From Dehalococcoidia bacterium (GTDB lineage: Bacteria > Chloroflexota > Dehalococcoidia > Lucifugimonadales > UBA3495): a stretch of 64,000 bases of DNA. Numbering within the stretch: the stretch's first letter is position 1; the number at the start of each line of letters is the position of its first letter. The notes beneath the pieces are model-generated. The model saw only the letters and a list, made by a program, of their open reading frames with translations. It was not told the DNA's origin and did no database searches. Made by a program: the position numbers and the translations under genes. The stretch lies in contig OZ220464.1 in assembly GCA_965115825.1 (NCBI GenBank), forward strand, positions 2,901,945 to 2,965,944, read 5' to 3'. Of the stretch, positions 2,226 through 61,018 are shown piece after piece.

Positions 2226-2231
2226 TCACAG

Positions 2232-2278
2232 GAAGGCAGCGTTGTCAAAGCCTCTGCTTTATGTACAACGCTGCCTTC
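2232..2278 (+). terminator. Stem-loop directly after the gyrA stop (candidate terminator)
   Basis: Perfect 14-bp arms gaaggcagcgttgt (2232-2245) / acaacgctgccttc (2265-2278). The 19-nt loop is long and the T-tail weak (ttctatt). Confidence 0.45.
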
Positions 2279-2368
2279 TATTGACATACAAACGTTCGCG
2301 GGGTATGATACCTGCAAAATCGCAGGCACCCAATGCCTCAAACCAATGGTAGCTTGGAGGGAGTTGAC

Positions 2369-3322
2369 ATGAGCGGCACACTGTATCATGGAGATTGCCG
2401 GGTGATATTCCAAGCGTTCGACCGGGAGAACCGGCGCGAAATCCCCGATAACAGCATAGACTTGGTGGCGATGGATCCTCCGTACTTCATTGACGGCATG
2501 GGGGATGACTGGAACCATAAGCGGCTTGCTGTTCGAAAAGCCAAAGGAGGCGTAGTTAAGGGCCTCCCTACCGGGATGAAGTACGATCGCCGCCAATCTA
2601 AACACCTCTATAAATTTTTCAAACCCGTCGCAGAGTTTTGCTACTCCGTGCTAAAGCCCGGAGCATTTATGTGTGTCTTTGCCCAAGGGAGGCTTTATCA
2701 TGCCGTGGCGATGGCTGCGGAGGAAGCAGGCTTCGAAGTCAAGGACATGATGTCGTGGCGTTATAACCGTCAACCGAAAGGGTTCTCGTTGCGTCATTTT
2801 GTCAAAAAGATGAGCCTGTCGGATAGCGAGAAGGACGATATCATATCAAAAATAGGTGACCGTCGAACTCCACAGCTGCGGCCGCAGTTTGATCCTATAC
2901 TTTTGGCTCAAAAACCTCGCGAGGGTAGTTTTGTCGACAATTACCTCAAATGGAACGTCGGAGTGATTAACCCCAAAGTGGGAGTCGATGGGCACTACCC
3001 TGGGACTGTGATTGATATTAAACCTGAGCCTAACCGCAACATCGACCACATGACTGTGAAGCCAGTGGCTCTTATGGAACGGCTGATTGACACGTTCACT
3101 ACTTCAGAAGACATTACACAGACGGTATTAGATCCGTTTGTTGGATCCGGCACTACCGCTGTGGCAGCCCACAAATTGAGGCGGCACTTCATCGGCATAG
3201 ACACTGAAATTGAATATGTCGATATAGCTCTCCGCCGTCTCAGGGCAATGGGCTGTAGCCCTAGAGTGGTCACTGAATATAGCGGCGTCCTTTTCGACCA
3301 CGTGATGCAGTCCGATCATTAA
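2369..3322 (+). CDS. DNA methyltransferase, beta-class (N6A/N4C family, PF01555-like)
   Basis: DPPY motif IV near the N-terminus (LVAMDPPYF) and SAM motif I near the C-terminus (LDPFVGSGTTAVAA). GGAGG lies 8 nt upstream of ATG 2369. The ORF is also open from ATG 2333. Confidence 0.85.
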   Translation: MSGTLYHGDCRVIFQAFDRENRREIPDNSIDLVAMDPPYFIDGMGDDWNHKRLAVRKAKGGVVKGLPTGMKYDRRQSKHLYKFFKPVAEFCYSVLKPGAFMCVFAQGRLYHAVAMAAEEAGFEVKDMMSWRYNRQPKGFSLRHFVKKMSLSDSEKDDIISKIGDRRTPQLRPQFDPILLAQKPREGSFVDNYLKWNVGVINPKVGVDGHYPGTVIDIKPEPNRNIDHMTVKPVALMERLIDTFTTSEDITQTVLDPFVGSGTTAVAAHKLRRHFIGIDTEIEYVDIALRRLRAMGCSPRVVTEYSGVLFDHVMQSDH

Positions 3323-3539
3323 CGACTTTCCCCTCCTCCTCCAATTTGTCCATTACTGCTGTAACGATGCTATCGTTGAGACGAGGGCCGTTGCCCGCTG
3401 CTTCAGCGCCCCGGTAAATCTGCAATGCTCTACTCATATCGGCGGGGCCAACACCGTTTGGTGATTCGTTTTTGAGAACCTCCATGATTGCTTCCTCCAA
3501 AAGGCGGATGGCATCCTGGGCTTTTTCAACTGGTGTCAT
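3270..3539 (-). CDS. Small winged-helix-like protein (possible R-M controller/regulator)
   Basis: 89-aa ORF with a strong SD (AGGAGG, 7 nt before ATG 3539). It is divergent from the nuclease gene and its 3' end overlaps the MTase 3' end by 53 nt. The helix-rich sequence with a basic tail suggests wHTH. Confidence 0.55.
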   Translation of the reverse strand: MTPVEKAQDAIRLLEEAIMEVLKNESPNGVGPADMSRALQIYRGAEAAGNGPRLNDSIVTAVMDKLEEEGKVVNDRTASRGRKGRRYIQ

Positions 3540-3564
3540 TTACAATCCTCCTGACTTGGAAAAG

Positions 3565-4308
3565 GTGAATATTGTGACAACCACACGACTTGGGATCGAC
3601 GGGCCGCACGTTTATATGTCCACCGATGAAATCAAAAGCCGTTACGATGAACTCACTAGCTTACATCAACAGCATCTCCGGCGATACGACGTAAGAATGC
3701 CGGCCGAAGGCTCGAACAAAGCTCTGCACCTCATATACCTCCACAAGCACGTTAGAAAGTTAGTTCACAAGGACACTGTATCGGCTTTTGTGCGTTCTGT
3801 CAAGCCCAATGCGGGCGCTGATCAGCAAGTGCGCCACTTAGCCGCGGATGGATGGAACGTGCTGAACCGAGGTAATGCTATCGATGAAAATGAGATTGTG
3901 CCACCCGGGTATCATATGCTCAGGGACGTGACAACCGTCAAGCCAGATTTTTTACATAGGCGCCTGCGTCGCGTTGGACGAGTAGCTGCTACCTCATTCG
4001 AGGAACTGAAAGCTGTCTATGATTTTCGCTGCGTTACGTGCGGCAGTAGAGAAGGTGGGCACCTTCCGCTAAACCCGGACGCTATCGTTGAGTTGCAGCA
4101 AGGTCATATGCACCCAAACAGACCGCTCACACTGGACAACACTATTCCGCAATGCCAATACTGCAATCAGACATACCAAGATAATTTTGTGTTTGACCAA
4201 AACGGCCGAGTGCAAGCTTTGTTCAACCCCAATTTCATTTTACGTTCTGAACAAGCGGTGCAAGAAGCGATTTTGCACTTGCTGAGGCAATCATTTCCGG
4301 ATGTCTGA
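3565..4308 (+). CDS. HNH (beta-beta-alpha-Me) type II restriction endonuclease candidate
   Basis: C-terminal CVTCGS...QQGHMHPN...CQYCNQ pattern (CxxC...H.H...CxxCN), adjacent to the MTase. Start uncertain: GTG 3565, GTG 3574 or ATG 3616. Confidence 0.6.
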   Translation: MNIVTTTRLGIDGPHVYMSTDEIKSRYDELTSLHQQHLRRYDVRMPAEGSNKALHLIYLHKHVRKLVHKDTVSAFVRSVKPNAGADQQVRHLAADGWNVLNRGNAIDENEIVPPGYHMLRDVTTVKPDFLHRRLRRVGRVAATSFEELKAVYDFRCVTCGSREGGHLPLNPDAIVELQQGHMHPNRPLTLDNTIPQCQYCNQTYQDNFVFDQNGRVQALFNPNFILRSEQAVQEAILHLLRQSFPDV

Positions 4309-4450
4309 TTTTGTGACGTCCAATATCCGATTTGCCAGAGTCACCGAGTTTTGAGTTGTTACAGCGCAGATTATACTATGAGCATCGGGACATGGTTTTA
4401 CTCATGCAATATTTGACGCAAATTAGCCTTCATGTTCCGGAACATTCACA

Positions 4451-5149
4451 ATGCTAGGACATACCTCCATGCAGCTCCTCATGGTTCACGGCTCCGGCCA
4501 GAACGAACTCACCTATCACTATCAAACCGCACATTTCCCCAACGCCGACGCTGTCAACCTCCCCGGCCACCCTCACGGCCAGCCCAAAGACAGCATCGCC
4601 GGCTACGCGGACTGGCTCCGCGAGTATGCCCTGGCCCAAAACTACCCGCCCTTCGTGTTGTTCGGTCACTCCATGGGTGGCGCCATCGCCTTGGACTACG
4701 CCCTGCGCTTCCCCCAGGACTTGGCCGGGCTGGTTCTCATCGGCGCTGGCGCCAGGCTGCGCGTCCACCCCGATTACCTCAATCGCTGCCTGGACGATGC
4801 CCAATGGCGCGCCGAGGCTCCGGCCTACTACGAAGCCATCAACCCCGAACTCGCCCCCCGGCTGGTCGCCCGCGCCCTCCAATCCGGCCCCTTGGTGGAG
4901 CGCAACGACCTCTCCTGCTGCGACCGGTTCGACGCGATGCAGCGCGTGCGCGAAATCGCCATCCCGTCGTTGGTCATTGTCGGCGCCGACGACGTAATGA
5001 CGCCGGTGCGCTACGCCGAATACCTGGGCCGGGAATTGCAGGACGCCCAGGTCGTGGTCGTCCCCAACTCCGGCCATTTCGTTACCCTGGAACAGCCCGC
5101 CGCTGTCAACGCTGCCATCGCCCGCTTCCTCAATCGGTTAGCCGGCTGA
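4451..5149 (+). CDS. Alpha/beta-fold hydrolase
   Basis: Nucleophile elbow GHSMGG, an HGSG-type N-terminal strand, and a C-terminal SGH motif. Confidence 0.8.
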   Translation: MLGHTSMQLLMVHGSGQNELTYHYQTAHFPNADAVNLPGHPHGQPKDSIAGYADWLREYALAQNYPPFVLFGHSMGGAIALDYALRFPQDLAGLVLIGAGARLRVHPDYLNRCLDDAQWRAEAPAYYEAINPELAPRLVARALQSGPLVERNDLSCCDRFDAMQRVREIAIPSLVIVGADDVMTPVRYAEYLGRELQDAQVVVVPNSGHFVTLEQPAAVNAAIARFLNRLAG

Positions 5150-5206
5150 TTGGCGGCGCCCATTGCTGGTATTATGTGGTCATCCGAGCCTACTCGCTTG
5201 ACCGCA

Positions 5207-7411
5207 ATGGCCACCATCCAATCCTACGCGCCCGACGCTCATCGGCTGGCCGATTCGCTGGCCGCCATCTACGCCGGCCGCTCCGACGCCGAGGGCCTGC
5301 CCGCCGCCCGCCGCATCTCCGCAACCGCAGCCCAACTGTCGGACTCCGCCCCGGCTGCCGACGCTGCAATAATCAACGTGGCGGCGCTTTTCCTCCTCTC
5401 CGGTCGGCCCGACGCTTCCCATCGCTCCCAGCTTTCCGCCGCCATCGTCGACGCTTGGCTGCGCGGCGCCGGCGCCCCTGAGCCTTTTGTCGCCGCCGTG
5501 CGCAGCGTTCTCCTGGACGCTTGGAACCCCGCTCCCAACGCCCACATCGCAAGGCTGCTGTGGCATTCCGCCCAACTGGACCTGGTCTGCGTAGAACGGC
5601 ACGCCCATTACTTGCAGGATACGCCCCCATCCGGACATTGCCGGGAGCAGTACCTGGCCGCCTACCGCCGCGATTGCCTCATGCCTGCCTTGACCCTCCG
5701 CCCGCGCTTGTCAATGCCGGCGGCGGTAGCAATCTACGATGCGCGGATGCCCCTGCTGTCCGCCTGGTTGGACCAACATCCGATGCCGCCGGTTCCCGCC
5801 GACTGGCGCCGCTTGGCCGAAGTGTCCACCATAGAGCAAGGCGTTCAGAGTCTGCTCGCCGGCGAAGACCCGGCGCAAGTCCGCGCCGCAATGCCCGCCC
5901 CCGGCCTACCCTACGCCGAATATCGGGCGCGCCAGCGCGCCATCATCGCCGGCAGCCACCACCGCATCCTGGAGTTGGCCCACGACCGTATCCAAGCCTC
6001 CCGCAACGTCGCCGCCGAAAAATACCTCGAAAGCGACACCATCCACAAACCCGCCGTCGAGGAAAACCTGTTCGCCAGCGCCCGACGCCGCGCCCGTCAG
6101 CTCGGCCTGTCTCCCGAAACCGCCGAAGACATCGCCCGCCTCCTCCTCTCCAACGCCCGCGAAGTGCAGGAACGCACCCTCAACGACATCGCCCAGCGCC
6201 TCAGCCGCCTCCACGGCCAAATCCTGGACGCCGATTCTCCCGAAACCAGCGCCGAAGAAGCCGACATCGCCACCCCTTCCCTAGTTGTGCGCACCGGCGA
6301 CCAGCCCCTGGCCCGCGAAAACGAACTCATCAAGGAACTTCGCGTTACCGGACTCAACGAAGCTTACCCGGAACAGCGTCGCCGCTTTGCCCAGTGGTTT
6401 GATCCTCCTCATCCTTACATACTCACCGGGCAGATTGTCGCCAGCCGCGACGCCGACTTGTTCCTGCAAGCCCTCACCGACGGCCATCCCTGCAAGGTCG
6501 TCGCTGCCATGCCCGCGCACGGCCCGATGCACTTGACCCATGGCGCTCTCGGCAGCCTGCTCACTTACTTCCAGTCACTGGGCGCCGCAATCATCCTCGC
6601 TTTCCGGGACGAGACCCATTCCCGCCCGGAGGCCCGCCGGAATATGCTCGACCGTCTGCTTACCCTGGCCGCCAATGGCCTCGACCTCCGCCGCGCCGAC
6701 GCTTACCTGCAACTCGACCGCCCCGCCATCACGACCGCCGCTTTTGAGCTGGGCCGCGTTACTCCCTTAAGTCTGCTCAACTCGGCCCTCGGCCTCCGCC
6801 TGAACAGCAGCGCCACCGATACCTTTCTCCCCCTCTTGCGCATCGCCGACATCCTCCATATCCAGCAGCCTGAATTCGGCGGCCCCTGCCGCACCCTGGT
6901 CATCGACGGCATCGGCGGCGACGTGTACGTCCGCATGGCCCGCAGCGTCGCCGACCGCTTTGGACTCCTCAAGCCCTCCGCCCTCTACCTCCGCGCCATG
7001 CGCAGCCTCGCCACCTACCACGACCCGACTACCGGCAGCGCCGTGGAAATTATGACCAACGCCGTCCCCCAGGGGCGCATCGCCTACGACGACCATCCTG
7101 ACGACATCCGCCGCCGCATCCGACGCGCCTACACCGGCGGACGTCGCACCTCCGCGGAGCAGCGCGCCAAGGGCGGCAACCCCGACCCCCGCGTTTGCAG
7201 CGTCTCCAGCCTCCACGCCTTCCACGCCACGCCCGAGCCCGACGCCTACGCCGAGCTGCAAAAACGCTGCCGCTCCGGAGACCTCCTCTGTGGCGAATGC
7301 AAAGCCTCCGCCGCCCACAACCTGCTAAAATACTTGCGGCGCAGCCGGCAAACCCGCGACGCCTTGCCCCAATCCGTCCAACTGCGCGCCCGCTCCCTCG
7401 CCGGCCTCTGA
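5207..7411 (+). CDS. Multidomain protein: unknown N-terminal region + AroQ chorismate-mutase-like segment + degenerate TrpRS-like C-terminal domain
   Basis: nt ~5912-6190 fits the CM_2 pattern (R..I..ILELAHDR...S..VAAEK....I..P..EE...A...GLSPE...I...L...S...Q). nt ~6412-7411 aligns by eye with the neighbouring TrpRS, but HLGH is HLTH and KMSKS is replaced by EIMTN. First ATG at 5207; the ORF is open from TTG 5150. Confidence 0.6.
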   Translation: MATIQSYAPDAHRLADSLAAIYAGRSDAEGLPAARRISATAAQLSDSAPAADAAIINVAALFLLSGRPDASHRSQLSAAIVDAWLRGAGAPEPFVAAVRSVLLDAWNPAPNAHIARLLWHSAQLDLVCVERHAHYLQDTPPSGHCREQYLAAYRRDCLMPALTLRPRLSMPAAVAIYDARMPLLSAWLDQHPMPPVPADWRRLAEVSTIEQGVQSLLAGEDPAQVRAAMPAPGLPYAEYRARQRAIIAGSHHRILELAHDRIQASRNVAAEKYLESDTIHKPAVEENLFASARRRARQLGLSPETAEDIARLLLSNAREVQERTLNDIAQRLSRLHGQILDADSPETSAEEADIATPSLVVRTGDQPLARENELIKELRVTGLNEAYPEQRRRFAQWFDPPHPYILTGQIVASRDADLFLQALTDGHPCKVVAAMPAHGPMHLTHGALGSLLTYFQSLGAAIILAFRDETHSRPEARRNMLDRLLTLAANGLDLRRADAYLQLDRPAITTAAFELGRVTPLSLLNSALGLRLNSSATDTFLPLLRIADILHIQQPEFGGPCRTLVIDGIGGDVYVRMARSVADRFGLLKPSALYLRAMRSLATYHDPTTGSAVEIMTNAVPQGRIAYDDHPDDIRRRIRRAYTGGRRTSAEQRAKGGNPDPRVCSVSSLHAFHATPEPDAYAELQKRCRSGDLLCGECKASAAHNLLKYLRRSRQTRDALPQSVQLRARSLAGL

Positions 7412-7473
7412 AGGCCCAACCTGCCGGCGAAGGCTGCCTGCTTGCCCCATCACCTACCCAGGAGACCACCGCC

Positions 7474-8490
7474 ATGTCAGACCTGCAACGCATCCTCACC
7501 GGGATGCGTCCCACCGGACAACTCCACCTCGGCCACTATCTGGGCGCCCTGGAAAACTGGACCCAAATGCAGCATGAATACGACTGCTTCTTCCTCATCG
7601 CCGATTACCAGGCCATGAGCGACCATCTCGACGACATCAGCCTCATCCGCCGCTCAGTATTAGATGTCGCCACCGACTGGCTCGCCGTCGGCCTAGACCC
7701 CGATAAGTCCGCCTTCGTCATTCAAAGCTACGTCCCCGAGCACGCCGAGCTCACCATGTACTTTTCCATGCTCACCCCCCTGAGCCAGCATCAGAAAAAC
7801 CCCACCCTCCGCGCCGAAACCGCGCAGCTCGCAGCCGAGCATCAATCCATAACCCTGGGCTTCTTCAACTACCCCATCAGCCAGGCCGCCGACATCCTTC
7901 TGCCCAAGGCCCACCTGGTTCCCGTCGGCCAGGACCAGGTTCCCCACATCGAATACACCCGCAACGTCGCCCGACGCTTCAACCGCCTCTACGGTGAAGT
8001 CTTCCCTCTCCCCCGCGCCCGCGTCGGTCGTGTTCCCCGCCTCGTTGGCACCGACGGCCAGGCCAAAATGAGCAAGAGCCTCAACAACACCATCTACCTC
8101 GCCGACGACCCGGAAACCGTCGCCAACCGCATCCGCCGCATGGTAACCGATGTCACCGGACAAAACCCCCGCCTCCGGGCCACCGACCCCGGCGTCGTGG
8201 ATCACAACCCCGCCTTCCTCTACCATGACGCATTCAACGACAACCCCGACGAAGTCGCCGAGCTCAAAGAACGTTACGCCGCTGGCTCAGTCAGCGACAG
8301 CGAAGTCAAAAAGCGTCTTACCCATGCCGTCAATCGCTTCCTGGAACCCATCCGCGAACGCCGCGCCTGGTACGAGCGGCATCCGGATTACGTCCGCGAC
8401 GTCCTCCTCGCCGGCACCCAGCGCGAACGCGACGTCGCCCAGCAAACCATGGCCGAAGTCCGCCAGGCCATGCAAGTAATTTACACTTGA
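7474..8490 (+). CDS. trpS: Tryptophan--tRNA ligase
   Basis: ILTGMRPTGQLHLGHYLGAL (HIGH-type) and KMSKS motifs. AGGAGA SD upstream of ATG 7474. Confidence 0.92.
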   Translation: MSDLQRILTGMRPTGQLHLGHYLGALENWTQMQHEYDCFFLIADYQAMSDHLDDISLIRRSVLDVATDWLAVGLDPDKSAFVIQSYVPEHAELTMYFSMLTPLSQHQKNPTLRAETAQLAAEHQSITLGFFNYPISQAADILLPKAHLVPVGQDQVPHIEYTRNVARRFNRLYGEVFPLPRARVGRVPRLVGTDGQAKMSKSLNNTIYLADDPETVANRIRRMVTDVTGQNPRLRATDPGVVDHNPAFLYHDAFNDNPDEVAELKERYAAGSVSDSEVKKRLTHAVNRFLEPIRERRAWYERHPDYVRDVLLAGTQRERDVAQQTMAEVRQAMQVIYT

Positions 8491-8655
8491 CGCCCCGCGC
8501 CCATAGCCGTCCATCACGCAACAAGCATCATCCCCCGCGCGCAAGCCTAATAGCAGCAGCCATCCCCACCGGCGTAGCCGTAACCGTCACCGACCCGCCA
8601 ACGCCGGCTAACCGGAAGAAAAGCCGACATATGCGCAATTTCCCCTCCCCATGGA

Positions 8656-11600
8656 ATGTACATTATGACCGCAGCACAGCCCAACGTAACGGGCTCTCCC
8701 CGCTGGGATTTAGCCCGCGGCATCGTCGCCCAGCTCCGCCAAATGCCCGCAGCCACCGCCGAAGCCGAAATCGAAGTTCGCTTGCACACAGTGTTGGGCT
8801 TTCTCTTCCCTACTCTCAAATATCCCGACCTCGCCACCCAGTACCCATCCGGCGACGGGCCCATCGACATCTACTGCCGCAACGTAGTCTTTGAAACCAA
8901 ACGCCAGGGCCGAAAAGACGACGCCCGCACTAAACCCGACGGCTCTACCGAAACCCCGGAAGAGCAAGCCGTCCGTTACTTGGACGCCCTTACCGTCCAC
9001 CCCACTACGTTTGATGATATCGCCGTCGGCTGGCGCGCCGCCATCACTGACGGCAAAGAATGGAGCTTTTACGATTACCGCCGCAACTCGCCTGATGTGG
9101 GAAATCTGACCCTGATTAACACGCTGCGTTTGAATACGCCCGATGATGACGAAACACTGCTGGCATACCTCTACGATTTCGTCAACCGCACCGCCAAACT
9201 GCTGCCGCCAACCAATAACGCAGAATGGGCCGAGCGACTGGTGCAGCCCTTTATCGCGCTGGCGGCAAGCTACGAAAGCACGTCGGAATACAGCGTTAAG
9301 CAACAGCTTTGGGAAGGCGTCCTGCGCGGCGCATTTATCATCCCGCCCGATGACCCCGACGCCAAACGCGACCTCTTCGCCCGCCACACCATGTTGGTAG
9401 TAATCGCCCGCGCCATCGCTGAAACCCTGCGCCCCCGGGGACTGCGGCAAACCGGACGGGAACCGCTGCATCACACCCTCACCCAAGGCTTCTCGGCATG
9501 GTTGCTTGATGCCGCCGGTAGCGACGGCGAAGCAGCCGTGGCCGCCTTGGTGGAAGAGGTCGATAATTACGCCTGGCTCGCAGCTAACCGGGATACCCTG
9601 AAAGACCTGTACCACATCGTCATCTCCCGCGATATTCGCCATGACTTCGGGGAATATTATACGCCTGACTGGTTGGCTCGGGCAGTCTGCGAAGAGGTTC
9701 TAGATGCGGACTGGCGTAAGGAAACCATCGAGATGGCTGTTGTCGGCCAATTGAATGGTCCCGCAGTTCTGGACCCGTCATGCGGCTCCGGCACATTCCT
9801 GTTTCACGCAACCCAATTACTGCTGGAAGATGCCCGCCAGCACCCCGAGCTGGTGCAAAGCCCTCACGCGCAAGTCGAAATTGTCAACGACTTGGTGGCC
9901 GGCATTGACCTGCACCCGGTCGCAGTAGAACTTTCCAAAGCAACTAAAATGTTGGCATTTGGCGAGCTTGCTGCGTACTACGCCAACATCGCCGACCACG
10001 ACACCGTATATCTGGGTGATAGCCTGCAATGGGAAACCCGCCGCAGTCAGCGAACCGGAGAGATGGGTGGAACTGTGGATATTCCCACCGTCGAGACGGA
10101 CGCGCCCATCCGATTGCCCAACACTATTTTGGGACTGGAACGGTTCCCTCAATTGTTGGCGCAGATATTTGGCCACGCCAATCGCCCGGAAACCCCGGAT
10201 AGCGAATCCAATCTACTGGCGCTGTTGAGCTTAACAAGCCAGTCTGACCAAGAAGCGGCTGTCGAACTCTATCGGCGTATTCGCCAGTACATTGCCAGCG
10301 GCCGCAACAATGTATGGCAGTGGTACGTTGCCAATTTGGTGCAGCCCCTGCGTCTGTCCGAATCGCCGGTTTCACGCTTGGTGGGCAACCCCCCCTGGGT
10401 CGTGTACAACGCAATGTCCAACGAAAGACAGGAGGCTTTTCGGCGTCACGCCATTGACCGCCGCCTCTGGGCCGGAGCTCACTTGGCTACACAGAACGAT
10501 CTGGCGGCCACCTTTGTCGCTACCTGCGTTGATTACTACCTGCAACCGGGTTGCAAATTCGCCTTCGTGCAGCCTTACGCTGCTTTACAAGCGCGTCACT
10601 GGGAACCTTTCCGCTCCGGAGAATGGAGCTTGCCTCCCGAGGCCGGACGCTACCGTACATTAGCAGACCTAAGCTTGGAAGCGTGGGATTTACTCTCCAT
10701 CAACGCCCCACCGTTCCCTCAGGCCAATTCCTCGGTAATCTACGGAACCAAGATCGACGCTACTAATCCCACAACGCCTACACAGCCAGTACCGTTAGGT
10801 AACATTTGGGTTGCCGCCACCACTGAGTCCGTAAATACTCGTATGACATGGGAGGAGGTGAAACCTCTCGTGCAATGGAGCCGCCGTCGGCAATGGCTCA
10901 CCGCGCCCAGCCCTCTTTACTCCACGGCTTTTCGTACTGGAGCGACTCTATTCCCCCAATCGTTGGTTCTTTTCGAGCGCGTCCAATCCCGCGCTCGCGG
11001 CATAGTCTATTTTCACACCAATCAAGGCCGTGGAGCGTATCGGGACACCGACCGCGAGGGCGCAGTCGAGGAGCAGTTTGTTAAGCCCGTTTTGTTTTCT
11101 CAGCTGCTGTTGCCCTTCGGTACGACAGGGAGGTATTACCTCGTCGCTCCATTTACAAAAGATGGGACCGGCCTAATTGACGATTTGCCACCGGGCGCCG
11201 ACGCAGAGAGGTTTCGTCAATACTGGAACGCGGCAAATCAGGAGTATATTGACCGCAAGGGCGCAAGGTCGCCGCTCAATCTAACCGCCCGACTAGACCG
11301 CGGACGCGGCCTCTCATCGCAACTTAATCTACGTAGCGACTCCAAGATAGTGTACAACGGTATCGGAAATTACATTAATGCTTCCGTTGTACCAAGCTCT
11401 GACATAGTCAATCACAATCAGTACTGGTTCGCCCCTGCGGATGCTGACACGAACCACTATTTAGCTGCCATACTGAACGCCAGCTGCTTGTTGCACTTCT
11501 TTCAAGAGGCTTGTCAGCCAACAGATAGAACTTTCATGCTTCTCCCCGTCCAAAACCTCCCCATCCCGGCCTTCAACCACCGAATCCCCCATCATCGCAA

Positions 11601-11775
11601 CCTCACCGCCCAATCCCAACTCGCCCACCGGCGCGTCGCCGCCCTGGTTGCCGAACGTCAAGCCGCCAACCGCCGCATCAACCGCAACGACGTCCTGCAA
11701 GACCACGTCATGCAGCCCATCTTTGCCAGCATCGACCAGTCCGTCCGCGCCATACTCCCCAACTTCTGCTCATAA
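8656..11775 (+). CDS. Single-polypeptide type IIG/IIL-like restriction-modification enzyme (PD-ExK nuclease + gamma-class N6A MTase + large C-terminal region)
   Basis: N-terminal D-X8-E-X-K (PIDIYCRNVVFETKRQG), YYTPDWLA, SAM motif VLDPSCGSGTFLFHA, catalytic LVGNPPWVVYN. No separate R or S gene nearby. Confidence 0.7.
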   Translation: MYIMTAAQPNVTGSPRWDLARGIVAQLRQMPAATAEAEIEVRLHTVLGFLFPTLKYPDLATQYPSGDGPIDIYCRNVVFETKRQGRKDDARTKPDGSTETPEEQAVRYLDALTVHPTTFDDIAVGWRAAITDGKEWSFYDYRRNSPDVGNLTLINTLRLNTPDDDETLLAYLYDFVNRTAKLLPPTNNAEWAERLVQPFIALAASYESTSEYSVKQQLWEGVLRGAFIIPPDDPDAKRDLFARHTMLVVIARAIAETLRPRGLRQTGREPLHHTLTQGFSAWLLDAAGSDGEAAVAALVEEVDNYAWLAANRDTLKDLYHIVISRDIRHDFGEYYTPDWLARAVCEEVLDADWRKETIEMAVVGQLNGPAVLDPSCGSGTFLFHATQLLLEDARQHPELVQSPHAQVEIVNDLVAGIDLHPVAVELSKATKMLAFGELAAYYANIADHDTVYLGDSLQWETRRSQRTGEMGGTVDIPTVETDAPIRLPNTILGLERFPQLLAQIFGHANRPETPDSESNLLALLSLTSQSDQEAAVELYRRIRQYIASGRNNVWQWYVANLVQPLRLSESPVSRLVGNPPWVVYNAMSNERQEAFRRHAIDRRLWAGAHLATQNDLAATFVATCVDYYLQPGCKFAFVQPYAALQARHWEPFRSGEWSLPPEAGRYRTLADLSLEAWDLLSINAPPFPQANSSVIYGTKIDATNPTTPTQPVPLGNIWVAATTESVNTRMTWEEVKPLVQWSRRRQWLTAPSPLYSTAFRTGATLFPQSLVLFERVQSRARGIVYFHTNQGRGAYRDTDREGAVEEQFVKPVLFSQLLLPFGTTGRYYLVAPFTKDGTGLIDDLPPGADAERFRQYWNAANQEYIDRKGARSPLNLTARLDRGRGLSSQLNLRSDSKIVYNGIGNYINASVVPSSDIVNHNQYWFAPADADTNHYLAAILNASCLLHFFQEACQPTDRTFMLLPVQNLPIPAFNHRIPHHRNLTAQSQLAHRRVAALVAERQAANRRINRNDVLQDHVMQPIFASIDQSVRAILPNFCS

Positions 11776-12020
11776 GCCACAACCCACCCACACCGCCATT
11801 CCGCCAAAACCCGCAACCCGCGGCGCAACCCCCATCCTGAAAATCCTAAAATCCCGTAAATCCTGATTCTGACAAATTGATGACATCCAACGCTTGCGAA
11901 ACCGTACGCCAGTACTTTACCCTATCCCCGTCAGGCTCATCCGCCGGCCCCGCGCGAACCGTCGGATAACCGTCCCTGGCCAGGACACCGCCCGACACCA
12001 CAACTGAATAGGAGTCTCAC

Positions 12021-12258
12021 GGGGTTCAGGACATCACGGTCTAATCCGCCGCATCCGTACTGTGCGGCATGTCGGATCCATTGCACCACTGTGGTGCGCC
12101 GGAGGTCGGTCACATTACCCGGCTGGCGCACTCAGCACGGCGGGCGTCACCACCGCTGCGCGAGGACGGGCACTGCGCAAGCAGCCGTTAGCACGCGCAA
12201 GACTAGGACGTAAATAGCAAGCACGCTCTCGGGCCGTAGCGCCGACATCCTGAACCCC
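12021..12258. ncRNA. Candidate structured RNA core of element copy A (strand unresolved)
   Basis: Nested helices: 12021-12031/12248-12258 (11 bp), 12069-12075/12242-12248, hairpin 12048-12053/12063-12068, 12094-12100/12125-12131, 12147-12152/12194-12199. All inter-copy differences fall in predicted loops or junctions. Confidence 0.5.
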
Positions 12259-12311
12259 CAGGAACCCAACCAAAAATCCACCGACCGACCAAAAGGAGAG
12301 AAACAACCACC

Positions 12312-12371
12312 ATGAACACCGCCAACCCCAACCCCACTACCCGCGCCCCTCCCAAAGGCGCCGCAACATAA
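12312..12371 (+). CDS. 19-codon small ORF MNTANPNPTTRAPPKGAAT (conserved in copy B as a 17-codon ORF)
   Basis: Versus copy B: 4 nucleotide differences, all third-position synonymous, plus a 6-nt in-frame indel (NP). AAGGAGAG upstream, although the spacing to ATG (~11-13 nt) is long. Confidence 0.5.
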   Translation: MNTANPNPTTRAPPKGAAT

Positions 12372-12392
12372 GCGAAAGGCCCGATGCTGCGC

Positions 12393-12398
12393 TATAAT
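12393..12398 (+). promoter_or_regulatory. TATAAT -10-like hexamer upstream of the S9 peptidase gene
   Basis: Exact TATAAT 43 nt before ATG 12441. No convincing -35. Confidence 0.25.
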
Positions 12399-12440
12399 GG
12401 CAACGTCTTTCACGTCTTTCCCGCACGGAATGAGATTGCT

Positions 12441-14510
12441 ATGCCGAACCCCATAGGGCCCGACCTCTTTCGCCGCCTGACCACTGCAAGCGACCCCGCC
12501 ATCACGCCGGACGGCCGCCGTTGCGCTTACGTGTTGAACTGGTTTGACGATGCGGTGTCGGAAAGCCGCTCGCGCATCTATTTGGCGCGGCTGGACGCGG
12601 GCGACGGGAACGGTATGCCGCAGTCGTTGCCTTTCACCCGCGGCAACTCCGATACCCACCCCCGCTATTCTCCCGACGGTGCGATGCTGGCCTTTCTGCG
12701 ATCCGACGCACGGGCGTTAGTCCGGCGGCAAGTGTGGCTGATGCCATCGGACGGAGGCGAGGCCGCGCAGCTGACCCATCTGCCCAACGGCGTCCGCGAA
12801 TTCGCCTGGGCTCCGGACTCGGCCCGGCTGGCGGTGGTGGCCGATGTTTGCCCTCATGATGTTCTCCCCGATAAGGACGCCGCCGCCGCGGAGCCGGCAG
12901 TGCGCGAAGTTCGCCGCATCCGCTACCGGCACGACGCATTAGGATGGCGGGGCGACTGCCACTTCCACTTGTTCGTGGTGGACGCGCGCACGGGCGAGGC
13001 TGCGCAAATAACCGATGGCGATTGGGATGACACCGCGCCGGCCTGGTCTCCGGACGGTTGCCGCATCGCATTTATATCGGGACGGTCGGAATCCCGAGAT
13101 GTTACGGCATCTAACGAGGTGTACGTGATGGATGCGCCACCAGCCGGCCAATCCGCGCCGGAGCCGATCCTGTGGTCGCAAGGGCTAACCGACACGGCGG
13201 CGGTCACATGGTCTCCCGACGGGCAGCGACTGTTAGCCGCGGGCGGACACGATGAAGAGCTGATGACGCTGTGGCAAGCCTACCTGTACGTGCTGGAACC
13301 CGGCCAGCCGCCGCGCCGCATCACCAACGACAACATTCGGCCCTGTCTGGGCTATCCCGGCATCTACCCGCCGCTGGAACTGCGCTGGACCGCGGATGAC
13401 GATGGCGGAGATGGCCGCATCTTGTTTCTTGCCGACGCTGCCGGCGAAACGCGGCTGTACACCTTGGAAGCGCCGTCCGGCGACGGCTTGGGCAACCTTA
13501 CGCCGCTTACCTACGGGGGCGAACTGCTGTCGGGAATTTCCATCAATGCGGACGCGCGCCGGGTTGCGCTGACGGCATCCTCCCCCTCCGCGCCTTCGGA
13601 TCTGCACTCTGTCGCAACGGACACCGGCCAACGACGGCGGCTGACCGGGCACAACGACGCCTGGCTGGCGGAGTGCTCGTCGGCAACTATGGAAAAGTTC
13701 ATCGTGGAGCGCGACGACTTTGACGTTGAGTGTCGGCTGTACCATCCGCCGGGCTTTGACGCCGGGCAAAAGTACCCGCTGATATTGGAGATCCACGGCG
13801 GCCCCAACGGAGCATTCTACGACTCTTTCGTCCCCTGGCATCAGGCGCTGGCGGGAGCCGGCTACCTGACCCTGGCGGTGAACCCGCGAGGTTCCTCAAC
13901 CTATGGCGAAGAGTTTGTCAACGCTGTGCTGGGCGATTGGGGCGGCGAAGATTACCGGGACCTCATGGCTGCGTTGGACGCCGTGTGCCAGCGGGATTAC
14001 GTGGACATCCGGCGGTTGGGCGTCCACGGCTATAGCTACGGCGGCTACATGACGACGTGGGCAATTGGGCATACCGCACGGTTCCGCGCCGCAGTAGCCG
14101 GCGCGCCCTGCATCGACCTGTGGAGTATGTACGGCACTTCGGACATCTCCACCGGGTTTGGCGAGACCCAATGGGCCAACCGGCTCGCCGGCGGTATGTC
14201 AGTCAGCCGCCCGCTGGCGGACGAACTGGCCCAGGGAGTGGACAGCCTGGCCTACCGGCTGCTGCAACGCTCCCCCATCACCTTTGCGCCGCAGGTGGAA
14301 ACGCCGGTATTGCTGCTGCACGGAGAGGACGATGCACGCTGTCCCATCGGGCAGAGCGAACAGTATTTTCAGGTGATGAAACGCTTGGGGAAAGAGATTG
14401 AGATGGCGCGATTCCCTGGCTGCAGCCACGGATTCCTGCGAACGGGACACGTGGCTCTGCGGCAAGAGTACCTGGAGCGGATGTTGGAGTGGTTCGGTCG
14501 TTGGCTGTGA
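12441..14510 (+). CDS. S9-family serine peptidase (prolyl oligopeptidase / acylaminoacyl-peptidase type, beta-propeller + alpha/beta hydrolase)
   Basis: GYSYGGYMT nucleophile motif, LLLHGEDDARCP and GCSHGF catalytic Asp/His regions, WD40-like PD40 repeats N-terminally. ATG 12441 preferred over 12384. Confidence 0.88.
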   Translation: MPNPIGPDLFRRLTTASDPAITPDGRRCAYVLNWFDDAVSESRSRIYLARLDAGDGNGMPQSLPFTRGNSDTHPRYSPDGAMLAFLRSDARALVRRQVWLMPSDGGEAAQLTHLPNGVREFAWAPDSARLAVVADVCPHDVLPDKDAAAAEPAVREVRRIRYRHDALGWRGDCHFHLFVVDARTGEAAQITDGDWDDTAPAWSPDGCRIAFISGRSESRDVTASNEVYVMDAPPAGQSAPEPILWSQGLTDTAAVTWSPDGQRLLAAGGHDEELMTLWQAYLYVLEPGQPPRRITNDNIRPCLGYPGIYPPLELRWTADDDGGDGRILFLADAAGETRLYTLEAPSGDGLGNLTPLTYGGELLSGISINADARRVALTASSPSAPSDLHSVATDTGQRRRLTGHNDAWLAECSSATMEKFIVERDDFDVECRLYHPPGFDAGQKYPLILEIHGGPNGAFYDSFVPWHQALAGAGYLTLAVNPRGSSTYGEEFVNAVLGDWGGEDYRDLMAALDAVCQRDYVDIRRLGVHGYSYGGYMTTWAIGHTARFRAAVAGAPCIDLWSMYGTSDISTGFGETQWANRLAGGMSVSRPLADELAQGVDSLAYRLLQRSPITFAPQVETPVLLLHGEDDARCPIGQSEQYFQVMKRLGKEIEMARFPGCSHGFLRTGHVALRQEYLERMLEWFGRWL

Positions 14511-14579: not shown

Positions 14580-15782
14580 ATGACCGTCCATCACGAAATC
14601 GCAACCGTTGAAGACTTGGAACGGATCCTCGACGAGCATCCCGAAATAAGGGAGCGTATCCGTCGCAAGTTGCTCACGGACGAGGAACGCGCACTGCCCG
14701 GCATCGTAGCGCAATTGGCTGAGGAATTGCGACGCCTCACCCAAGTAGTAACCGAAGGCTTTGCCCAAGTGCATCGGGAGCTCGACGAGCTAAGGAGCGG
14801 CCAGCAAGGGCTGCTGGAACGCCAACAGCGGCTGGAAGAAGGTCAGCAAGGGCTGGTGGAAGGCCAGCAAGGGCTGCTGGAGCGCCAACAGCGGCTGGAA
14901 GAAGGTCAGCAAGGGCTGGTGGAAGGCCAGCAAGGGCTGCTGGAGCGCCAAGAGCGGCTGGAAGAAGGCCAGCAAAGCCTAGTGGAAGGCCAGCAAGGGC
15001 TGCTGGAACGCCAAGAGCGGCTGGAAGAAGGTCAGCAAGGGCTGCTGGAACGCCAAGAGCGGCTGGAAGAAGGTCAGCAAGGGCTGGTGGAAGGCCAGCA
15101 AGGGCTGCTGGAACGCCAAGAGCGGCTGGAAGAAGGTCAGCAAGGGCTGGTGGAAGGCCAGCAAGGGCTGCTGGAACGCCAAGAGCGGCTGGAAGAAGGT
15201 CAGCAAGGGCTGGTGGAAGGCCAGCAAGGGCTGCTGGAGCGCCAAGAGCGGCTGGAAGAAGGCCAGCAAGGGCTGGTGGAAGGCCAGCAAGGGCTGCTGG
15301 AACGCCAACAGCGGCTGGAAGAACGCCAACAACAGTTCCACGAGAGCCTCGAAAATCTGCGCGGTACAGTGCTGGAGCAAACTGCCGCTCGCCGGTTGTT
15401 GCCTCGTATCACCCAGGAGCTTCGGCTCCGGCGACCCCAAATCATCAAGAGCTTGGACATGGCTATGCCGGTAACCTTGCTGGACGCTCTGGACAAGGCC
15501 GCGGAAGAAGACCGCATTACAATAGATATGGCCGCCGCCGTGGCCGTAACTGACCTCATAATGCAGGGAGTATCCCGAGACGACGCCACTCCCGTCTATG
15601 TGCTCGCCGAAATATCGGGCACGCTGAACCATCACGACATCGCCCGAGCTCAAGAAAGGGCAGCAGCGTTGGAAACCGCTACCGGCCAACGTACCTTAGC
15701 GGCAGTAGCGGCCGTTGTCATACCGGAGGCTCAGCGAGGCCGCGCAGCGGCTGCCGGCGTATCTACGTACTTGCTGAGCTAG
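14580..15782 (+). CDS. Coiled-coil heptad-repeat protein with a globular C-terminal domain (possibly restriction-endonuclease-like fold)
   Basis: ~25 heptads of LLERQ(Q/E)R-LEEGQQG-LVEGQQG. The C-terminal ~130 aa are non-repetitive (..VTDLIM..VYVLAEISGTLNHHDIARAQERAAAL..). Confidence 0.7.
   Translation: MTVHHEIATVEDLERILDEHPEIRERIRRKLLTDEERALPGIVAQLAEELRRLTQVVTEGFAQVHRELDELRSGQQGLLERQQRLEEGQQGLVEGQQGLLERQQRLEEGQQGLVEGQQGLLERQERLEEGQQSLVEGQQGLLERQERLEEGQQGLLERQERLEEGQQGLVEGQQGLLERQERLEEGQQGLVEGQQGLLERQERLEEGQQGLVEGQQGLLERQERLEEGQQGLVEGQQGLLERQQRLEERQQQFHESLENLRGTVLEQTAARRLLPRITQELRLRRPQIIKSLDMAMPVTLLDALDKAAEEDRITIDMAAAVAVTDLIMQGVSRDDATPVYVLAEISGTLNHHDIARAQERAAALETATGQRTLAAVAAVVIPEAQRGRAAAAGVSTYLLS
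14799..15323 (+). repeat. Tandem coding repeat, 63-nt unit built from three 21-nt sub-units (~8 units, one 42-nt unit)
   Basis: Near-identical units ggccagcaagggctgctggaacgccaa(c/g)agcggctggaagaaggtcagcaagggctggtggaa read directly in the sequence. Confidence 0.9.
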
Positions 15783-46217: not shown

Positions 46218-46235
46218 TTTTACGGGGTCGTTTTT

Positions 46236-46280
46236 GTCAGAATCCGGATTTACGGGATTTACGGATTTTCAGGATTGGGG
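46236..46280 (+). repeat. Third copy of the phased GGATTT motif (GTCAGAATCCGGATTTACGGGATTTACGGATTTTCAGGATTGGGG)
   Basis: Same ~45-55-nt motif as at 60731-60775 (+) and 11829-11873 (-), here without the structured core. Confidence 0.8.
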
Positions 46281-57162: not shown

Positions 57163-57210
57163 GCTGCCAACTCCTTGTCATTCCCGGGGGAACGGGAATC
57201 CGCCGGCCGG

Positions 57211-58248: not shown

Positions 58249-58358
58249 AATCGCCGGCGGACGGGCAAGCAGAGGGGAGTGCGGCGGGCGGTGAAGTGAG
58301 CCCGGCGCGGCTGCTTTAGGATGAGTTAGGTATAGGGAGGCGCGCCGTCGCGTCCGGG

Positions 58359-60110
58359 TTAGCGGCCCATGGCGTAGCCGTCGCGTCGCAGGTCGGCGCC
58401 GGCGTAGATTGCGCCGCTTTCCCGGTCAACCTCAATGGCGCAGAGGGATCCCATGCGGGGAGTCCATTCGTCCCACACGTCGACGTCGTGGCCGCGCTTG
58501 CGGAGGTCGTCGACTACGGAGGGAGCGATGCGGGATTCGACGCCGACGAGGCCGGGGCGGTAAGCGTGGGGCCAGAAGGAATTGGGGAAGCTCCAGGTGG
58601 ATGCGCGGGGGGCTTCGATGGCCTGCTGGACATCCATGCCGAACTCGGCGACGTTGAGGAACAGCTGGGTCATGGATTGGGGCTGGACGTCGCCGCCGGG
58701 GGTGCCGAAGGGTAGCCAGGGTTTGCCGTCCTTGAAGGCGATGGCCGGGTTGGGGGTGAGTCGCGGGCGCTTGCCGGGGGCGAGGCTGCTGGGGTGTTCA
58801 GCGTCCAGCCAGCTTTGGGCGCCGCGGGCGGAGACCATAAAGCCGAGGCCGGGGACGATGGGGGCGCCACCGAAGCCATCGCTAGGAGTAGCGGAGAAGG
58901 CGTTGCCCCAGCGGTCAACGGCGCAGATGTAGGAGGTGTCGGCGGAGAGGGGGCCGGCCATTGCTGCGGGCTGCGGCGCGGCGCGTCCACTGCCGGGTTG
59001 ATAGGCCCAGGGGTTGCCGGCGTCAGGCATTTCGGGGTGGGCCCGGTGGAGGTCAATCTCGCGGCGGCGGCAGTCGGCATACTCGGGGGAGAGGAGGCCG
59101 GTCATGGGGACGTCGACAAAGTCGGGGTCGCCGTAGTAGGCGTGGCGGTCGGCGAAGGCGAGTTTCAGGGCTTCGAGGAGGGTGTGGAGGTAATCAGCGG
59201 AGTTGTGGCCCATGCGTTGGAGGTCGCAGCCTTCGAGGATGCGGAGGGCGTGGAGGAGCATGGGGCCCTGGCACCACGGGCCGCAGGCATATACGTCGAT
59301 GCCTTTGTAGTCAATCATGGGTGGGGCGTCGACGCCGACGGAGAAGTCGGCGAGGTCCTGCATTGAGAGCCAACCGCCCTGGCTGCGGATGAAGGCGACC
59401 ATTTCCTCGGCGATGTCGCCGTGGTAGAAGAGGTCGCGGGCAGCTTGGATGCCGGCTTCGCGGCCACTGCCGTTGACGGACTGCTCGGCGTGGATCATTC
59501 GGCGGAAGGTACGGGCGAGGTCGGTTTGGACGAGGAGGTCGCCGATGTTCAGGGGCTGGCCGCCGGGGTAGAAAATCCGCATGTTACTGGCCCACTGGCT
59601 GGTGTCGCCCTCGTCCAGGATGATGTTGTCGCCGCTGCTGACCAAGGCGCGGTGGAGGGTGGCGGGTATGGGGAAGCCGTGCTGGGCGATTTCCAGGGCG
59701 GGAGTTACCACCTGCTCGAAGGACATGGAACCGTAGCGGGAGAGGGCGGTGAGCCAAGCGTCCGGCGCGGCGGGGGTAACGGTGCGCATGACGCCGTGGG
59801 GCATATCGCCGTCGTGGTGGCGATGGAAGTAGTCGGCGGAGGCTGCGGACGGCCAGCGTCCGAGGCCGCTGATTTCGCGGGTTTCGCCGGTGGAGGCGTG
59901 GTGGACGATGATGGGGGCGACGCCGCCGAAGCTGGTGTACTGGGGGAGGGTAACGTTGATGACGATGCCGGCGGCGACGCCGGCGTCAATGGCGTTGCCG
60001 CCCTGCTCGAGAATTCGGTAGCCGGCAGCGGTGGCCAGGTAGTGTCCGGTACTGATCATGTGGGTGACACCGCCGACCAGGGGGCGATAGCTGCGCAATC
60101 CGATAGCCAT
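58359..60110 (-). CDS. ggt: Gamma-glutamyltransferase
   Basis: GGNA.DA..A, autoprocessing region SADTSYICAVDRWGNAFSATPS, GTPGG. GGAGG SD before ATG 60110. Confidence 0.88.
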   Translation of the reverse strand: MAIGLRSYRPLVGGVTHMISTGHYLATAAGYRILEQGGNAIDAGVAAGIVINVTLPQYTSFGGVAPIIVHHASTGETREISGLGRWPSAASADYFHRHHDGDMPHGVMRTVTPAAPDAWLTALSRYGSMSFEQVVTPALEIAQHGFPIPATLHRALVSSGDNIILDEGDTSQWASNMRIFYPGGQPLNIGDLLVQTDLARTFRRMIHAEQSVNGSGREAGIQAARDLFYHGDIAEEMVAFIRSQGGWLSMQDLADFSVGVDAPPMIDYKGIDVYACGPWCQGPMLLHALRILEGCDLQRMGHNSADYLHTLLEALKLAFADRHAYYGDPDFVDVPMTGLLSPEYADCRRREIDLHRAHPEMPDAGNPWAYQPGSGRAAPQPAAMAGPLSADTSYICAVDRWGNAFSATPSDGFGGAPIVPGLGFMVSARGAQSWLDAEHPSSLAPGKRPRLTPNPAIAFKDGKPWLPFGTPGGDVQPQSMTQLFLNVAEFGMDVQQAIEAPRASTWSFPNSFWPHAYRPGLVGVESRIAPSVVDDLRKRGHDVDVWDEWTPRMGSLCAIEVDRESGAIYAGADLRRDGYAMGR

Positions 60111-60230
60111 GGGAATTACCTCCGCGTGAGCCAGCGCTAACGATAGCATTGCGCTGCTTGACGGCCGGCAGTATAGGGCATTGGGGGCAGGGTTGCCAGA
60201 GGGAGAACGGCCCGCTTGGGACCTTCGCGA

Positions 60231-60284
60231 TTATGTTGCGGCGCCTTTGGGGGGCGCGCGGGTGGTAGGGTTGGCGGTGTTCAT
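60231..60284 (-). CDS. 17-codon small ORF MNTANPTTRAPPKGAAT (copy B of the conserved sORF)
   Basis: Same upstream 55 nt (100% identical) and same peptide as copy A, apart from the absent NP dipeptide. All 4 substitutions are synonymous. Confidence 0.5.
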   Translation of the reverse strand: MNTANPTTRAPPKGAAT

Positions 60285-60581: not shown

Positions 60582-61018
60582 GTGAGACTCCTATTCAGTT
60601 GTGGTGTCGGGCAGTTGTCCTGGCCTGTGCACTGGGTTGGGACGGTTATACGACGGTTCGCGCGGGGCCGTTGGATGAGCCTGACGGGGATATTGTAGCA
60701 CGGTGGTACGGTTTTGCAAATGGGGTTTTTGTCAGAATCAGGATTTACGGGATTTTGGGATTTACAGGATGGGGGTTGTGGTGTGCGGCGCTGGAGGGGG
60801 GATGGGGGTTGGCGGTGGGGGATTGTCTGAATTGGGATTCATGGGATTTTAGGATTGAGGTAGGTTGCGGCGCAGGGGTGGATGGCGGCTGCGGGGGATT
60901 GGGGGGAGTGGACTGCGGATTGCGGCGGAATGAGGGTTGAGGGAGGGATGTTCTTTTGCCGGAGTGTGGATGGGGATTTCGGGTGAGGTGGGCAGGCGGG
61001 TGGGGAGGAGCTAGCCGA

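Follow-up and report, generated by a model that had tools for sequence, protein, structure and literature searches.

What is the role, if any, of a short open reading frame (sORF) of 17 or 19 codons that occurs twice in the genome of a Dehalococcoidia bacterium? Both copies lie in a stretch of 64,000 nucleotides (nt), hereafter the window (GenBank assembly GCA_965115825.1, contig OZ220464.1, positions 2,901,945 to 2,965,944 of the forward strand; GTDB lineage Bacteria; Chloroflexota; Dehalococcoidia; Lucifugimonadales; UBA3495), copy A upstream of an S9-family peptidase gene and copy B upstream of a gamma-glutamyltransferase (GGT) gene. A first-pass annotation, made from the letters of this DNA, had drawn attention to the pair and proposed a regulatory leader peptide, a micro-protein or a very short precursor of a ribosomally synthesised and post-translationally modified peptide (RiPP). 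The encoded peptides carry an exact in-frame Arg-Ala-Pro-Pro (RAPP) motif five residues from the C terminus, and we tentatively suggest, with a confidence that falls somewhat short of even, that the sORF is translated and acts in cis as a minimal RAPP-type ribosome-arrest leader.

The sORF copies and their RAPP motif

The sORF is not a stand-alone feature and forms the last 60 nt of an inverted repeat of ~550 nt, as seen from inverted-repeat pairs (I1-I6) and from alignment (coordinates in Table 1). Direct reading of both strands finds the two copies where the first-pass annotation had placed them, and a column-by-column alignment confirms that they differ by four substitutions (12335 C/T, 12338 T/C, 12347 C/G and 12350 T/C, copy A given before copy B), all at third codon positions and all synonymous, and by a single in-frame indel of 6 nt (12322-12327) within an AACCCC AACCCC tandem. 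Such a placement, with four of four substitutions on the 18 wobble sites among 54, has a probability of P = 0.0097. Upstream of the ATG the copies are indeed identical, over 80 nt (12232-12311) rather than the 55 nt given at first. Their similarity stops 3 nt past the TAA, and the sORF is the last conserved feature of the unit.

Both repeat copies are found in the same arrangement in a second strain of the same species, whose loci (L008 and L009) were reached via cluster members of the S9 peptidase and tyrosyl-tRNA synthetase (TyrRS) proteins and are 98-99.5% identical to the window over ~40 kb. In an alignment of the four sequences (window A, window B, L008 A and L009 B), the four wobble differences and the 6-nt indel appear as fixed differences between A-type and B-type copies, and the ATG, the TAA and the GGAG core of the Shine-Dalgarno (SD) sequence are kept in all four. 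The L009 B copy has three changes in the spacer between SD and ATG (GGAGAG to GGAGGC; C to A at -1) and zero in the sORF. Overall, wobble positions hold four of the five sORF substitutions (p = 0.045), and only one strain-level change is seen in the sORF versus eight in the 57-nt leader just upstream (p = 0.02), which is the most variable stretch. Moreover, all seven indels in the 330 nt upstream of the sORF have lengths that are not multiples of three. A codon-like constraint on the sense frame seems plausible from these alignments.

The first-pass annotation had also stated that the other frames are not preserved between the copies. One antisense frame, however, has its wobble positions in common with the sORF, and there too the four A/B substitutions change no amino acid. 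It reads GGARVVGL(GL)AVFMVVVS in both copies and would encode a hydrophobic peptide (...AVFMVVVSLLLVGRWIFGWVPGG...), but coding by this strand seems to us most unlikely. In L009 an ATG has become ATT (M to I) and a Ser has become Cys, in L008 an Ala has become Val, and a 1-nt indel gives C termini of 50 aa versus 101 aa, with the N termini lying outside the repeat. No such protein was found when the 101-aa antisense ORF was compared with 5.8 billion proteins, a search that was also meant to catch spurious calls over other copies, and the hydrophobic character follows from the GT-rich complement. Because the antisense frame is broken by these replacements and by frameshifts, the sense frame is the only coding candidate.

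The sense peptide is of low complexity, rich in P, T, A and N and free of any hydrophobic stretch, and only 8-10 residues (MNTANP(NP)TT) precede the RAPP. The polyproline stall motif that had earlier been read as APPK is of the stall type, and is better named an exact RAPP arrest motif (PMC10951233, PMC12992588). The arrest peptides ApdA, ApdP and CruR all have RAPP as their core (PMC7897499; PMC10951233; PMC12992588; PMC9426467). RAPP/RGPP arrest works in several unrelated N-terminal contexts and EF-P gives no relief (PMC12992588), although RAPP by itself reportedly does not suffice and needs a suitable neighbour region on its N-terminal side (PMC10951233, PMC12992588). The same tetrapeptides are among those most strongly excluded from bacterial proteomes, Chloroflexota included, and they are over-represented towards the C-terminal end of small upstream ORFs (uORFs), which precede genes with a wide range of functions (PMC12992588).

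When the window and ~100 kb of related loci are translated in all six frames, RAPP/RGPP turns up 16 times in total, and four of these occurrences are the sORF copies (two in the window and two in L008/L009). None of the other 12 is in the frame of a called gene, and 11 of them fall within loci L002-L006. The 17,105 genic codons of the window would be expected to hold ~0.9 RAPP/RGPP and hold zero, a difference that is not significant. Dinucleotide shuffles of the sORF yield RAPP in 1.3-2%.

The repeat unit and the 48-kb inversion

The two repeat copies (blastn, 88.6% over 578 nt with gaps) are composed of five parts, i.e. a 51-nt 5' module, a diverged stretch of ~110 nt, a core of ~240 nt, a CA-rich leader of 80 nt and the sORF. 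In the core the copies differ by only four substitutions and by indels of 1, 4 and 1 nt; these indels break every frame, and the stretch upstream of the leader is therefore non-coding. The leader and the sORF together (12232-12371) have the composition A48 C61 G23 T8, their 80-nt windows rank in the top 0.3% for C minus G, and minimum free energy (MFE) folds predict them to be unpaired. A C61:G23 ratio of this kind is what would be expected of a Rho loading site. In place of the promoter-like site of copy B, TTGCGA-18-TACCCT is found in copy A (11894-11923), in its L008 ortholog and in the B ortholog of L009. No terminator-like site was found within or after either copy.

Table 1. Features of the repeat unit, the sORF and the nearby genes (window positions unless a locus is named)
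Feature	Position	Strand	Details
Repeat unit, copy A	11826-12374	+	Inverted-repeat pairs, alignment; second-strain ortholog L008 9444-9991
Repeat unit, copy B	60228-60778	-	Inverted-repeat pairs, alignment; second-strain ortholog L009 6381-6935
5' module of copy A	11826..11876	+	51 nt, CCCCATCCTGAAAATCCTAAAATCCCGTAAATCCTGATTCTGACAAA; ATCC/A-tract motifs phased ~9-10 nt
Promoter-like site in copy B	60692..60719	-	TTGCAA-16-TACAAT with upstream TG
Non-coding core	A 11990..12231; B equivalent 60365-60612	A +	~98-99% identical between copies; local hairpins
CA-rich, G-poor leader	A 12232..12311; B equivalent 60285-60364	A +	SD AAGGAG 12293-12298 (A); SD 60298-60303 (B)
sORF copy A	12312..12371	+	19 codons and TAA; encodes MNTANPNPTTRAPPKGAAT; ATG 12312, TAA 12369-12371; direct reading and alignment
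sORF copy B	60231..60284	-	17 codons and TAA; encodes MNTANPTTRAPPKGAAT; ATG 60284, TAA 60233-60231; direct reading and alignment
RAPP codons	A 12342-12353; B 60249-60260	A +; B -	Also in both second-strain orthologs
A sORF ortholog	L008 9929-9988		Encodes MNTTNPNPTTRAPPKGAAT
B sORF ortholog	L009 6879-6932		sORF identical to copy B
S9-family peptidase gene	12441..14510	+	Downstream of copy A; Pfam Peptidase_S9 E=2e-44; own TATAAT 12393-12398
GGT gene	58359..60110	-	Downstream of copy B; Pfam G_glu_transpept E=6e-118; promoter-like site 60170-60199
Paralogous gene pairs near the copies	5150-7411, 7195-8490, 8656-11775; 53111-55939, 55942-57162	+ (first three); - (last two)	

The 51-nt module is seen four times in the window, at 11826-11876 (+), 60728-60778 (-), 60819-60869 (-, partial) and 46230-46280 (other orientation), and could represent curved DNA, a protein-binding array or a repeat similar to repetitive extragenic palindromic (REP) sequences. 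The copy at 46230-46280 stands apart from the element, right after the stop of a 1592-aa ORF (41439-46217). The element lacks the marks of an insertion sequence or miniature inverted-repeat transposable element (MITE): terminal inverted repeats were not found in the element, the broken frames leave no transposase, the window holds only two full copies, and BLASTN with the whole element gave no match in plasmid and phage collections.

Comparison with the gene order of relatives shows where the two repeat copies lie. In three orthologous loci (L002, L003 and L010) the S9 gene has a divergent MFS transporter gene on its upstream side, and in two of them (L003 and L010) BNR precedes MFS. The present species has the orthologous BNR-MFS pair (88-92% aa identity) beside copy B and the GGT gene, with the S9 gene behind copy A, 48 kb off. 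Because BNR-MFS is displaced relative to S9, the two copies mark both junctions of a 48-kb inversion. Inverted duplications at inversion breakpoints arise by staggered breaks or by recombination between inverted repeats. The present copies resemble them in standing inverted at the ends of a segment that is reoriented relative to the ancestral gene order, and in a mosaic of copies that indicates ongoing exchange; such duplications explain the origin of the second copy only, and fit functional and non-functional readings of the sORF. The inversion could have originated by recombination between pre-existing inverted copies or as a staggered-break inversion that duplicated the junction.

The mosaic is evident in the L009 B copy, the 5' third of which is of A type, and the two paralogs of that strain have one change in common, from which it follows that gene conversion moves sequence between the copies. 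Judging from this pattern, conversion probably explains the near-identical middle of the repeat versus its differing edges. The 5' edge has diverged in a manner resembling non-coding DNA (13-nt indel, dense substitutions), whereas the 3' edge has not. We also observed eight strain-specific changes within ~60 nt of the L009 B core (6553-6640; window equivalent 12011-12070), which is otherwise invariant; this cluster may have been brought in by conversion from a third, unseen copy, or may reflect compensatory evolution.

Both downstream genes are on the same strand as the sORF, with the S9 start (12441) 69 nt and the GGT start (60110) 120 nt after the sORF stop. The distance of 69-117 nt reported at first is thus correct for S9 and slightly too short for GGT, and a database gene call for S9 (P0001, P0241; 708 aa) uses the ATG at 12384, which leaves a gap of only 12 nt from the sORF stop. 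The start at 12441 is backed by the orthologs (MPNPIGP vs MTNPIGP); with the 12384 start, translational coupling between the sORF and the peptidase gene would be possible. The TATAATGGCA box at 12393 is common to the S9 orthologs, that of L003 included, and the promoter-like site of the GGT gene, which the promoter scan places after the sORF, is CTGGCA-18-TATACT.

Seven orthologous loci from other species were compared, three for S9 (L002, L003 and L010; 81-84% protein identity) and four for GGT (L004, L005, L006 and L011; 85-87%), and no part of the element is present at any of these loci. The link to peptide-degrading enzymes drawn by the first-pass annotation, which had proposed to check whether homologs always precede peptidase-type genes, is not upheld by this absence at seven of seven loci, and the element is ruled out as a conserved leader of peptidase genes. 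That two peptidase-type genes follow the sORF is probably a side effect of the inversion, above all if the inversion arose by staggered breaks.

The gene neighbourhood also bears on the suggestion that the sORF is a RiPP-like precursor processed by the S9 peptidase or GGT. It would be in keeping with a short peptide that has many Pro and Thr residues, and with the use of prolyl-oligopeptidase-family enzymes in some RiPP pathways. However, S9 and GGT are conserved genes of a housekeeping type, their orthologs in the seven related loci (81-87% aa) are not accompanied by such an ORF, and the adjacency to GGT is explained by the inversion. In addition, no family is seen outside the species, and no maturation or modifying enzyme (radical SAM, YcaO or lanthipeptide synthetase) is found beside either copy. 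We therefore regard this suggestion as hardly credible.

Searches for a wider family returned little. In GTDB representative genomes (185,579 species) the pattern MNTANP...PPKG had one chance match, inside a glycosyltransferase-like gene of an Opitutaceae metagenome-assembled genome, and in JGI metagenomes the pattern NPTTRAPPKG had one chance match, antisense to a 1348-aa ORF. The exact 22-mer from SD to ATG was not found in JGI metagenomes, nor was either peptide pattern found in IMG/VR. Together with the plasmid and phage searches, these results suggest that the element is so far confined to one species. Rfam 15 gave no match at gathering score over the whole window, and at E<=10 only a spurious H19_3 on 11700-12480; ARAGORN found no tRNA or tmRNA.

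Arrest leader or incidental frame

If the sORF is an arrest leader, the module would be transcribed and a ribosome would start at the sORF ATG and arrest at Pro13/Pro14 in copy A or at Pro11/Pro12 in copy B. The parked ribosome would cover RNA that is rich in C and poor in G, as in Bordetella CruR, and it would depend on the arrest whether the transcript is cut short, by Rho or by RNA decay, ahead of the next gene. Since this scheme needs no particular downstream sequence, it would survive being copied in front of an unrelated gene. The sequences themselves show the layout of the module, the in-frame RAPP, a start, stop and SD core kept in four sequences, the wobble-biased substitutions and the place at the inversion junctions; translation, arrest, an effect on S9 and GGT, the involvement of Rho and the signal sensed are the parts that we infer. 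Precedents for the individual steps are available: in CruR the RAPP-arrested ribosome prevents Rho-dependent termination before the next gene (PMC9426467), and when ribosomes pause at proline motifs, translation loses its coupling to transcription and Rho can act (PMC5021804).

A more specific form of the proposal holds that a chain of 11-13 residues, without sensor or export domain, stalls at the end of a portable leader RNA of ~450 nt and gates Rho read-through into any downstream gene. We consider this form improbable. The availability of Pro-tRNA or peptides, an ABCF factor or a small molecule might then tune the arrest. The sORF would be the first RAPP arrest unit in Chloroflexota and the shortest one in nature, and part of a regulatory cassette that genome inversion has spread.

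By design the sORF is closest to the RAPP-type arrest uORFs, and by size to the leader peptides of the mgtL, TnaC and Erm type. With the RAPP/RGPP uORFs of the ApdA, ApdP and Streptomyces lividans class it shares an exact in-frame RAPP near the C terminus, a small uORF and a co-directional downstream gene. The families of this class are conserved across taxa, whereas here we have 17-19 aa, with 8-10 residues before the motif, in one species. The motif and its position are thus those of the class, and a sensor domain and a conserved downstream pairing are absent; the sORF may work like a member, and although a stalling regulatory leader, as first proposed, remains the best functional reading, membership in the RAPP class is unproven.

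CruR (DUF2946) of Bordetella pertussis is the closest system for the Rho logic, with the same proposed principle that arrest on a C-terminal RAPP prevents Rho-dependent termination (PMC9426467). However, CruR is a secreted or membrane copper sensor of ~140 aa that acts via CXXC and heads a conserved copper operon, and no sensor domain is present here. Moreover, the downstream genes in the window are mutually unrelated and have their own promoter-like sites, and a role for Rho would be pure inference.

The mgtL (17 codons) and mgtP leaders resemble the sORF in their length of ~17-19 codons, in their richness in proline codons and in lying within a leader of several hundred nt. In Salmonella and E. 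coli their output is thought to be set by the speed of the ribosome past the proline codons and by Rho or attenuation. They differ in having alternative stem-loops of their own that overlap the ORF and in being conserved before Mg2+ transporter genes, whereas here the homology ends at the stop, which leaves no conserved alternative structures 3' of it, and a conserved partner gene is lacking. EF-P-dependent coupling is reported for proline-codon leader ORFs (PMC5021804).

SecM, TnaC and the Erm leaders are alike in that their short or C-terminal arrest sequences act in cis. TnaC (24 codons) blocks the access of Rho by its stop codon, and Erm leaders stall with nascent chains of 9-10 residues. 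TnaC and Erm leaders need a small-molecule cofactor, and none is known for the present sORF. SecM and Erm leaders unmask a downstream ribosome-binding site via a hairpin that includes the ORF, and SecM contains a related RAGP core (PMC10951299); no such pairing is predicted here, and SecM-like unmasking was rejected because the MFE folds lack pairing to the sORF. An attenuation leader of the trpL/thrL/hisL type, with terminator and antiterminator hairpins at the end of the ORF and a biosynthetic operon behind it, does not fit either, since no terminator-like sites are present, the sequences after the stop are unrelated between the copies and the downstream genes are hydrolases.

Several observations weigh against a translated arrest leader. 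Known members of the ApdA, ApdP and S. lividans class are ~100 aa or longer and nearly always have a signal peptide, a transmembrane segment or a sensor domain giving the releasing force, a feature that is usual rather than universal, being absent in one of seven S. lividans examples (PMC12992588). The spacing from SD to ATG is 12-13 nt, compared with 7-8 nt for the GGT and TyrRS genes in the same window, and promoter scans found no module promoter that is conserved across all four copies. Each downstream gene has its own promoter-like site 3' of the sORF, and in the MFE folds, which contain only local hairpins, the sORF does not pair with the ribosome-binding sites of those genes. Searches of GTDB representative genomes, JGI metagenomes, IMG/VR, plasmids and phages turned up no homolog. 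The RAPP was recognised post hoc. The L008 A copy has a nonsynonymous change (GCC to ACC, Ala4Thr), so the statement that the copies differ only synonymously or in frame, which is true of A versus B in the window, does not extend to the second strain. An indel of 6 nt in a 6-nt tandem would be in frame by slippage alone, and conversion rather than selection may lie behind the high identity of the core. Finally, the statistics consist of five substitutions and one indel from two paralogs and two strains of one species, and the "classic signature of purifying selection" claimed by the first-pass annotation is an overstatement.

The main rival explanation, conceivable though on the unlikely side, is that the sORF is a chance open frame in non-functional inversion-junction DNA whose two copies gene conversion keeps similar; the wobble pattern and the RAPP would be small-sample coincidences. 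According to this explanation, the inversion of the 48-kb segment was accompanied or preceded by an inverted duplication of ~550 nt, which staggered breaks or recombination of older copies could have produced, and since then the middle has been converted and the edges drift. The copies lie exactly at the synteny break, the element is missing from the seven orthologous loci and turned up no homologs elsewhere, and the mosaic has the pattern of gene conversion; the p-values of only 0.01-0.05, the RAPP frequency in shuffles (1.3-2%), the 12-13-nt SD spacing and the nonsynonymous change point in the same direction. Against such an origin stand several independent weak signals that favour the sense frame, namely the wobble bias, the in-frame indel and the smaller number of strain-level changes than in the leader, together with the retained ATG, TAA and GGAG, the exact match to a much-avoided and functionally specific tetrapeptide, and a 5' repeat edge that diverged like non-coding DNA when the 3' edge did not. 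If the sORF is untranslated, the locus would be a clean inverted duplication at inversion breakpoints kept alike by gene conversion, and would serve as a warning that two copies differing only at synonymous sites say little about the presence of a gene.

Another explanation, to which we assign a low probability, is that the RNA of ~450 nt (a structured non-coding RNA or a cis-regulatory leader) or a DNA element is functional and the sORF is incidental. The core is 98-99% identical between the paralogs, while four of 18 wobble sites of the sORF differ, although gene conversion explains this high identity too. The eight-change cluster of L009 includes four pair-keeping changes in two adjacent predicted hairpins, one of them fully compensatory (U.G to A-U), and an 11-nt perfect long-range complement joins 12021-12031 (GGGGTTCAGGA) with 12248-12258 (TCCTGAACCCC). 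This complement (GGGGTTCAGGA/TCCTGAACCCC) is invariant in all four sequences and could close an RNA domain of ~240 nt. RNAalifold counts one compensatory pair, four one-sided pair-keeping changes and three broken pairs. The broken pairs speak against a conserved fold, as do a folding energy no better than that of shuffles (z=-0.13 and -0.20), the lack of an Rfam match even at E<=10 and the absence of anything similar outside the species; moreover, the frame pattern of the sORF would be left unexplained. Equally improbable in our view is a translated micro-protein of 17-19 aa that acts in trans, with neither arrest nor cis-regulation. The evidence for coding constraint, with SD, ATG and TAA kept, would suit it as well as an arrest leader, but RAPP is strongly counter-selected in ordinary proteins (PMC12992588), a conserved unit without a terminator is not a self-contained gene, and the low-complexity peptide has no recognisable fold or hydrophobic segment and no homologs elsewhere.

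Should the sORF be translated and stall ribosomes as an arrest leader, the RAPP core would work in a leader peptide of <20 residues without an export or sensor domain. Because the genome-wide surveys of RAPP uORFs were based on annotated proteins, ORFs this short were invisible to them, and a hidden class of mini-arrest leaders would then be indicated. The sORF would also provide a compact and portable stalling cassette for gauging the N-terminal context that RAPP needs.

Neighbouring genes and composition of the window

Paralogous pairs of genes, encoding class-I TyrRS/TrpRS-like (tRNA-synt_1b) and MmeI-like restriction-modification proteins, are located near both copies of the repeat (Table 1) and are also present in L008. 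One ORF of those near the copies joins chorismate-mutase (CM_2) and tRNA-synt_1b domains. The MFS gene is separated from copy B by an ORF with leucine-rich repeats (61212-63002, +), which consists of 72-nt repeats preceded by 33-nt repeats (61446-61577) and measures 530 aa in L009.

The window has a strong asymmetry between its strands. The GC skew is ~-0.2 in the left flank (1-12000) and ~+0.2 in the right flank (56000-64000), and near zero across the 48-kb middle; in both flanks C exceeds G by ~20% on the coding strand. Close to the S9 gene, a 400-aa ORF (14580-15782, +) without a Pfam match is made up of ~23 tandem 21-nt (7-aa) repeats that align in several registers. Its length differs by strain, with 379 aa in L008.

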